The notes below the pieces were generated by a model that saw only the letters and a program-made list of their open reading frames with translations, was not told where the DNA came from and did not search any database. DNA of 64,000 bases from a virus. Taxonomy: Duplodnaviria > Heunggongvirae > Uroviricota > Caudoviricetes. The stretch lies in IMG/VR virus record IMGVR_UViG_2706796742_000001, positions 23,511 through 87,510 of that record. One strand, given 5' to 3'. The translations under genes were made by a program, and so were the position numbers. Positions 5,378 to 5,470 of the stretch are shown here, piece by piece (position 1 is the stretch's first letter; each line of letters opens with the position of its first letter).

Positions 5378-5398
5378 AAGACCTATTTAGGTCTTTTT
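5378..5398 (+). terminator. intrinsic terminator-like hairpin
   Basis: AGACC-TATTTA-GGTCT followed by TTTTT. Confidence 0.45.
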
Positions 5399-5470
5399 AG
5401 AGAACTTCTAAGGTTATTACAGCTTGTTGTGGAACCTTGTTGCTTAGGTTCTTAGAAGTTCTCTAAAAAG
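5393..5470 (+). repeat. perfect 20-bp inverted repeat with 38-nt spacer
   Basis: CTTTTTAGAGAACTTCTAAG at 5393-5412 is the exact reverse complement of 5451-5470; lies just upstream of the tRNA at 5478. Confidence 0.7.

Follow-up and report, generated by a model that had tools for sequence, protein, structure and literature searches.

From comparison of related phages, we identified a predicted long double-stranded RNA stem in the polycistronic transcript of the tRNA array of Felix O1-type phages. Its core is a perfect 20-bp inverted repeat in the tRNA array of the DNA studied here, a 64-kb segment of a Felixounavirus genome (Felix O1-like, Ounavirinae) that we refer to as the window. By analogy with characterized stems, we propose with a probability of roughly 45% that the helix serves in processing or insulation, probably as a substrate of RNase III, and that it controls how accessible the leader of the adjacent tRNA-Leu is.

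The inverted repeat is the core of a long helix beside tRNA-Leu

The window contains 25 tRNA genes at 3370-8260, all on the + strand, as are the larger flanking and embedded ORFs. The repeat lies at the 3′ end of a 252-nt gap that extends from tRNA-Ser(tga) (5136-5225) to tRNA-Leu(tag) (5478-5554), the latter heading a run of five closely spaced tRNAs. The first-pass annotation of this DNA had reported a perfect 20-bp repeat with a 38-nt spacer just before a tRNA, and we recovered both arms, CTTTTTAGAGAACTTCTAAG at 5393-5412 and its exact reverse complement at 5451-5470, with tRNA-Leu(tag) beginning at 5478. The same annotation had judged such a repeat unlikely by chance, and our estimates agree: the chance expectation for the 20-mer is 0.03 matches, and 0 of 100 shuffles gave 2. 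The repeat ranked first among the local inverted repeats of the entire window, within which we found no second copy of the 20-mer when up to 3 mismatches were tolerated.

When G·U pairs are counted, the repeat grows to 26-27 nt (5387-5413 / 5450-5476, + strand), and the 20-bp repeat is the core of a 24-27-bp helix. RNA folding, which had been proposed as a check, gave -37.9 kcal/mol for 5387-5476 (z = -6.25). The helix has at least 24 bp, of which just 7 are G-C pairs, with an AU-rich base, and when it is fully extended a single base is left between the duplex and position +1 of tRNA-Leu(UAG). The final bases of the 3′ arm (AAAGATTTAA) double as the tRNA-Leu leader. Between the arms lies an apical region (5414-5449), where the MFE fold forms a small apical stem (5431-5437 / 5446-5452). 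Perfect 20-bp arms are found in this phage and a few others, while the usual Felixounavirus arms carry GAGGGC against GTTCTC, with two G·U wobbles where the window has A-U pairs. The perfect palindrome is a lineage-specific state, and at the DNA level the helix is normally imperfect.

The closest upstream sigma-70-type promoter on the + strand (TTGACA-17-TATAGT, 4500-4528; 11/12 matches in the promoter scan) is ~950 nt upstream of the hairpin and is the likely start of the transcript that would contain it. This site corresponds to P45, a promoter proposed for Felix O1 (PMC3185647), and has the same 16-nt offset past tRNA-Ile. In our scans there was no strong terminator-like site between this promoter and the hairpin, and no promoter in or downstream of the hairpin. 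The Felix O1 genome paper gives no terminator or other feature at the hairpin position (PMC3185647), and in GenBank records the annotation beneath the match is almost always "none". Two micro-ORFs in this region (5277-5390 and 5309-5455) were rejected as coding because indels of 1-2 nt and 12-13 nt interrupt their frames in other genera.

Other parts of the array also hold features of note. Two ORFs within it each have a domain of unknown function as their sole match: DUF7338 for 6343-6900 (E = 2.6e-62) and DUF7217 for 7289-8086 (E = 4.4e-88). A leader motif, AAAGATT(T)AAT, directly precedes the first tRNA that follows each long gap, at 4805-4820 (before tRNA-Arg at 4821), 5462-5477 (before tRNA-Leu at 5478) and 6893-6908 (before tRNA-Gln at 6909), and may be a shared processing signal.

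The hairpin is conserved in three genera of phages

The first-pass annotation would have set the repeat aside had it been absent or unconserved in close relatives and lacked a transcript boundary at the site, and had suggested looking for it in related phages. We found the hairpin in every Felixounavirus, Suspvirus and Mooglevirus copy examined. A BLAST search with a 102-nt region returned 245 phage records, ~215 of them Felixounavirus with an identity of at least 90% and the other 30 Suspvirus or Mooglevirus phages with ~74-76% identity. Seven more records contain the nearly invariant block that accompanies the hairpin (described below) with no BLAST match to the hairpin itself; the three that we inspected, Mijalis, ESh22 and Sf16, each have a diverged hairpin (3/3). 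Similarly, retrieval from IMG/VR by the block alone gave 24 contigs, all of which were also retrieved by the hairpin (co-occurrence 24/24).

Kolesnikvirus phages do without the element, and in the Erwinia phage phiEa21-4 the syntenic 417-nt gap lacks a hairpin. We found no copy of the element in 5,426 complete E. coli genomes and no match to the associated block in 185,579 GTDB species genomes. A Felix O1-type hairpin region with 96% identity is present in GU169904 (Staphylococcus phage SA1, 60176-60277) and in one Campylobacter phage record, but these are probably chimeric or contaminated assemblies and not true cross-genus occurrences. As a separate observation on these arrays, many relatives lack the 114-nt spacer that separates tRNA-Leu(caa) from tRNA-Arg(acg) at 6134-6247, which accounts for a BLAST length difference of ~107 bp; in NBEco004 these two tRNAs are 8 nt apart.

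Base pairing is maintained on the + strand while the sequence drifts

We aligned 16 distinct variants from closely related genomes, in which the 27-pair helix gives 432 pair cells and few independent events. Standard pairs make up 96.8% of the 432 cells, compared to 31-65% in registers shifted by sliding the 3′ partner 1-3 columns. Of the pairs, 14 are constant, 7 have changed on one side between Watson-Crick and G·U, and 3 have changed on both sides, namely pair 18 (A-U/G·U/G-C), pair 21 (U-A/G·U/G-C) and pair 23 (U-A/U·G/C-G), with the wobble intermediate of each double change seen in some lineage. Pairs 17-24 vary while pairing is kept, and the basal 10 bp of the helix are sequence-invariant. 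At pair 11, Felixounavirus has U-A, whereas a U·C mismatch is fixed in Suspvirus and Mooglevirus. The covariation score was greater than that of all 500 column shuffles, although related sequences can give such scores without structure, and the observed number of pairs changed on both sides was reached by 48 of 500 shuffles; we regard this shuffle control as only suggestive. The slid-register control and the wobble pattern carry more weight, since kinship can affect the shuffle statistics and the count is reached in that many shuffles.

The wobble pattern is strongly asymmetric between strands. On the + strand there are 78 G·U cells compared to 1 A·C cell, and the same 78 cells read on the - strand would be mismatches. 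In every relative tested, the predicted fold is 5-14 kcal/mol more stable for RNA of the + strand than for that of the - strand, while in this window both strands fold well because its arms happen to be perfect. Identity of the helix between genera is 72-75%, the same as that of the neutral-looking part of the spacer, whereas the neighboring tRNAs are 94-100% identical. Together, the preservation of pairing while the sequence drifts and the G·U wobbles on the + strand argue for selection on a + strand RNA helix and not on a DNA palindrome. As judged from these substitutions, selection targets the shape that a + strand single-stranded nucleic acid takes by base pairing; given its setting, this nucleic acid would be the tRNA-array transcript.

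The helix resembles RNase III processing stems

RNase III of E. coli and Salmonella cuts AU-rich, nearly continuous duplexes longer than two helical turns, and its processing stems include the leader-trailer stems of the E. coli rRNA operons, R1.1 of the T7 early mRNA, and the N-leader and sib sites of lambda. With 24-27 bp on the transcribed strand, the helix exceeds the double-stranded length of an RNase III site (at least ~20 bp, about two turns). Like the rRNA, T7 and lambda stems, it is a conserved stem of at least 20 bp between functional RNAs of a multi-gene transcript. It differs from T7-type sites, which have a characteristic internal loop, in being nearly continuous, with one U·C mismatch in Suspvirus and Mooglevirus only. 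It also differs from the rRNA stems in that these enclose a functional RNA, while the long stem encloses only a small apical hairpin. By this comparison the element resembles RNase III processing stems and would be an unannotated structured processing element in a phage tRNA precursor. In the literature that we searched, there were no transcript mapping, RNase III cleavage or expression data for Ounavirinae phages, and the element had not been described.

A second, smaller hairpin overlaps the base of the helix. This hairpin, AAAGACCU-AUUU-AGGUCUUU (5377-5396, + strand; -8.7 kcal/mol, z = -4.7), is conserved as AAAGACC/GGTCTTT, with a loop that is free to vary and stem changes that keep wobble pairing. 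Its 3′ strand is also the 5′ strand of the long-helix base, and because the strands overlap at 5389-5396 the two hairpins are alternative conformers. Forcing the small hairpin costs 2.4-3.4 kcal/mol in four lineages, and in the resulting conformer the long helix is cut to 17-19 bp and a 12-14-nt tRNA-Leu leader is freed.

In the processing-stem model that we favor, host RNase III would cut the near-perfect, AU-rich duplex of more than two helical turns. Such a cut would separate the tRNA-Ser/block part of the precursor from the tRNA-Leu-Lys-Ala-Gly-Thr run and leave ends from which exonucleases could begin trimming. The base of the helix would sequester the tRNA-Leu leader AAAGAUUUAA, and the nearly isoenergetic small-hairpin conformer would free it, such that the two conformers could gate the access of RNase P or RNase E. 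It counts against this model that phages of Kolesnikvirus do without the element. The first-pass annotation had offered four functions for the repeat; of these, an RNA processing hairpin is the one that the comparative data favor, whereas a protein-binding site, a recombination hotspot and an endonuclease target are DNA-level ideas for which we found indirect support alone.

A related stem encloses tRNA-Ser

The upstream neighbor of the gap, tRNA-Ser(tga), is itself enclosed by a 13-bp leader-trailer stem (5123-5236, + strand). Its flanks at 5123-5135 and 5224-5236 pair and thereby lengthen the acceptor stem to a ~21-bp helix with one bulged base. Among the 25 tRNAs, tRNA-Ser alone has a leader-trailer stem (z = -6.3), and it is the sole tRNA examined whose encoded CCA is incomplete, with a T after GCC. 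The flanking stem is kept in all lineages, its single variant being a + strand G·U, and it has the same topology as the stems enclosing 16S and 23S rRNA. The tRNA-Ser stem GTCTTATTAG ... CTAATAAGATTTA nearly matches the long-hairpin base GTCTTTTTAG ... CTAAAAAGATTTA, and within the array this paralogous sequence occurs only twice, at the tRNA-Ser flanks and at the base of the long hairpin. From this similarity, the leader-trailer processing stem appears to be present twice, the long hairpin being a copy that encloses a small apical hairpin in place of a tRNA. In the processing-stem model, the paralogous 13-bp stem around the CCA-less tRNA-Ser would act likewise.

Further upstream, we observed a tRNA-like segment at 5040-5122, with a 7-bp acceptor-type stem, a T-loop-like motif (GGTTCAACTCC), a possible CCA (Trp) anticodon and a 3′ GCCA, that was called by neither ARAGORN nor the Rfam tRNA model. 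This segment is 83% conserved between genera, is directly preceded by a promoter-like site at 5010-5039, and is swapped for an HNH gene region in SUSP1.

The hairpin belongs to a conserved spacer unit that could be a stable RNA

Within the spacer, an invariant block, the small hairpin and the long hairpin make up a conserved non-tRNA unit, of which the long hairpin forms the 3′ domain. The unit follows a variable 5′ part of the tRNA-Ser/tRNA-Leu spacer (5226-5296, + strand), which holds small hairpins and is 71-76% identical between genera. The ~80-nt block (5297-5376, + strand) is 97-100% identical over Felixounavirus, Suspvirus and Mooglevirus, a level of conservation equal to that of functional tRNAs. 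It starts with GCACCTA-G-TAGGTGT (5298-5312), in which the two strands of the tRNA-Leu(tag) acceptor stem are linked through one base. Being invariant, the block provides no covariation, and its fold alone is unexceptional (z = -1.8). In the consensus fold of the entire spacer, a multi-hairpin domain precedes the long hairpin.

The apical loop of the long hairpin is likewise conserved. Its motif TTGTTGCT (5437-5444) is invariant in all variants, with TTGTTGC kept throughout. On the 5′ side of the apex, a Felixounavirus-specific segment of ~12 nt (~5414-5429) repeats the loop part CTTGTTG; this segment is an indel between genera and looks like a duplication of the loop region. That the loop UUGUUGCU and the basal 10 bp are both invariant suggests recognition of specific sequences, for which a simple processing stem would have no need. 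When we looked for a target of the loop, its complement AGCAACAA occurred at chance frequency.

These features bear on a different reading of the hairpin, in which it is an arm of a stable phage non-coding RNA of ~180-250 nt (block plus hairpins) that is freed by tRNA-processing enzymes and has its own trans-acting role. The invariant block and the UUGUUGCU loop would then bind, for example, a host or phage protein or RNA, and the long stem would act as a scaffold and as nuclease protection and not as a cleavage site. We consider this reading less probable than the processing stem. A cleavage stem needs neither an invariant block nor an invariant loop, and the tRNA-like conservation of the block, its constant association with the hairpin and the multi-hairpin consensus fold are all as expected of a stable RNA. 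However, the lack of covariation and the ordinary fold of the block, the chance frequency of the loop complement and the lack of a matching known family do not favor it, and a 27-bp duplex would be unlikely to escape RNase III in vivo unless protected. Rfam 15 gave no family at the gathering threshold in scans of 6 kb and, with permissive filters, of 276 nt; the leftovers were microRNA-precursor models with 15-24 bits compared to thresholds of 54-107, of the sort that long hairpins attract.

Stable RNAs that are not tRNAs have been demonstrated within the T4 tRNA gene cluster, where they are known as species 1 and 2 (rnaC and rnaD). The unit described here is similar to these in comprising structured, conserved non-tRNA segments that are co-transcribed within a phage tRNA cluster; the T4 RNAs are proven stable species, whereas the element here is known from sequence, and no sequence relationship between them is expected. 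A looser precedent comes from GOLLD and ROOL, structured RNAs near phage tRNA islands (PMC12286853), which are also phage-encoded structured non-coding RNAs adjoining tRNA genes. These RNAs are 500-800 nt long with complex pseudoknotted folds, while the unit here is ~180-250 nt and dominated by one simple long hairpin. Both are represented in Rfam, and neither matched here. It is doubtful that the block and hairpin form an undescribed non-coding RNA family of enterobacterial Ounavirinae with a trans-acting function beyond precursor processing; one possibility for such a family would be a stable RNA, or an sRNA generated by RNase III, whose UUGUUGCU loop binds a host factor or counters tRNA- or dsRNA-directed defence.

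Two other spacer sequences in the array are also conserved. The 95-nt spacer between tRNA-Thr and tRNA-Val (5885-5979) is 91-95% identical across genera, compared to ~73% for the variable spacer, and may be another functional non-tRNA RNA. In addition, the 18-mer GGAGGTGGTCTGTATCTC (4944-4961) is also found in a tRNA-array spacer of phiEa21-4 (24413-24430), which hints at another conserved non-tRNA element.

The small hairpin is not a convincing terminator

The first-pass annotation had described the AGACC/GGTCT sequence as a terminator-like hairpin. The folding energy given above supports a hairpin at this position but the terminator label did not hold up, as neither the small nor the long hairpin was reported by the terminator scan or is among the Felix O1 terminators in Table 2 of PMC3185647. 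The TransTerm terminators of Felix O1 have GC-rich stems followed by 4-8 T (PMC3185647). The small hairpin resembles them in being followed by U residues, but it is much weaker and less GC-rich, and just UU remains past its 8-bp stem, most of the U run being inside the stem. The base of the long helix is AU-rich, and the sequence that follows the helix is AUUUAAU, not a U tract.

We weighed whether AAAGACC...GGUCUUUUU could nevertheless be a weak intrinsic terminator or pause site that divides the array into two units, with the long hairpin protecting read-through 3′ ends or blocking Rho loading on the untranslated spacer. An A run precedes the small hairpin and a U run follows, its stem is conserved while its loop is free, and it is positioned at the border between tRNA sub-clusters; moreover, the Felix O1 authors note many terminators with read-through that is unexplained (PMC3185647). 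Given the failed scan, the difference from the tabulated terminators, the U run largely consumed by the stem and the absence from our scan of a downstream promoter-like site to restart tRNA-Leu and the following tRNAs, we find this reading improbable. We regard the AGACC hairpin as a weak competing hairpin.

The hairpin/tRNA-Leu junction is a mosaic boundary

Relatives differ in the sequence found directly 3′ of the hairpin, with a switch point at ATTTAAT|G (the 5477/5478 junction) past which we found three alternatives. The first, present in the window, is tRNA-Leu(tag) allele a (GCACCTATAGCC...), and the second is a quite different tRNA-Leu(tag) allele b (GGGAGATTGACGG...). Alleles a and b are ~55% identical and alternate among otherwise near-identical arrays. 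The third alternative is an HNH cassette with ATTTAAT at both ends, located ahead of allele a; the initial 11 nt of this cassette are identical to the start of allele b. In Michonne-type phages, a gene for a 150-aa HNH endonuclease (Pfam HNH) is located exactly between the hairpin and the tRNA (Michonne 644-1109), and in Michonne the cassette adjoins the hairpin and the hairpin is unchanged. The copy of the allele-b start at the 5′ end of the HNH cassette and the ATTTAAT repeats suggest homing-driven allele replacement. The hairpin/tRNA-Leu junction is thus a mosaic boundary, which lends limited support to the earlier recombination and endonuclease proposals.

Free-standing homing-endonuclease loci are known from phage tRNA regions, such as T4 SegB and the T5 F-Tfl enzymes. 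The arrays studied here are alike in that HNH genes are inserted between tRNA genes, with one site abutting the hairpin, and differ in that the hairpin is present with or without the HNH gene and evolves as an RNA helix. A DNA-level element, whether a cruciform or palindromic binding site, an HNH homing-endonuclease recognition site or a recombination hotspot, would fit with the three alternative sequences, with the HNH genes that occupy several sites in these arrays, and with the perfect arms of this window, which make a cruciform possible. Nonetheless, such an element is very improbable as an explanation of the repeat. Most relatives would carry ~5 A·C mismatches on the - strand, and the 78:1 ratio of G·T over A·C is not expected of a symmetric double-stranded DNA site. 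Pairing is kept despite ~25% divergence of the arms between genera, the hairpin is intact in HNH-containing and HNH-free genomes alike, and the switch point is the start of a tRNA gene, which explains the boundary without the hairpin.

A functionless relic, either a decayed tRNA cassette whose leader-trailer stem is now empty or a mobile element of the miniature inverted-repeat type, is scarcely credible: the basal stem is paralogous to the tRNA-Ser stem, a 13-nt direct repeat (CTAATAAGATTTA / CTAAAAAGATTTA) brackets the spacer and the block begins with a collapsed copy of the tRNA-Leu acceptor stem, but the element is single-copy in the window, E. coli genomes lack it and GTDB lacks the block, we found no empty site among block-carrying relatives, none of the array tRNAs is significantly similar to the interior of the hairpin, and the compensatory and wobble-only substitutions indicate continuing selection for pairing. 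When the hairpin was compared with the 25 tRNAs and their flanks, the decayed-tRNA candidate was rejected, as we found only the similarity to the tRNA-Ser-flank stem, besides an overlap with tRNA-Leu that is an artefact. At 5226-5477, no cloverleaf was found by ARAGORN or by the Rfam tRNA model. The resemblance of CUUAGAA in the 3′ arm to the tRNA-Leu anticodon loop was dismissed as chance, as it is not conserved in other genera. A MITE or host-derived repeat was likewise rejected, with no dispersed copies in the 64 kb, none in the E. coli genomes searched and no filled/empty polymorphism.

Implications for Felix O1-type phages

Felix O1-type phages are widely used in Salmonella and E. coli typing, biocontrol and therapy, and their arrays of ~5 kb hold 22-25 tRNAs. 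Our analysis indicates that the array also holds selected non-tRNA RNA elements, namely the long helix, the block and the tRNA-Ser leader-trailer stem, none of which is annotated in any genome record or in Rfam. The finding does not point to a new kind of mechanism, the element being of a familiar kind that had not been annotated before. Should the block and hairpin prove to be a stable RNA with its own function, they would be added to the few unexplained structured RNAs found alongside phage tRNA islands. As an RNase III site, which is what we propose, the helix would provide a concrete, easily testable model of how the tRNA precursor of these phages is broken up by host enzymes.
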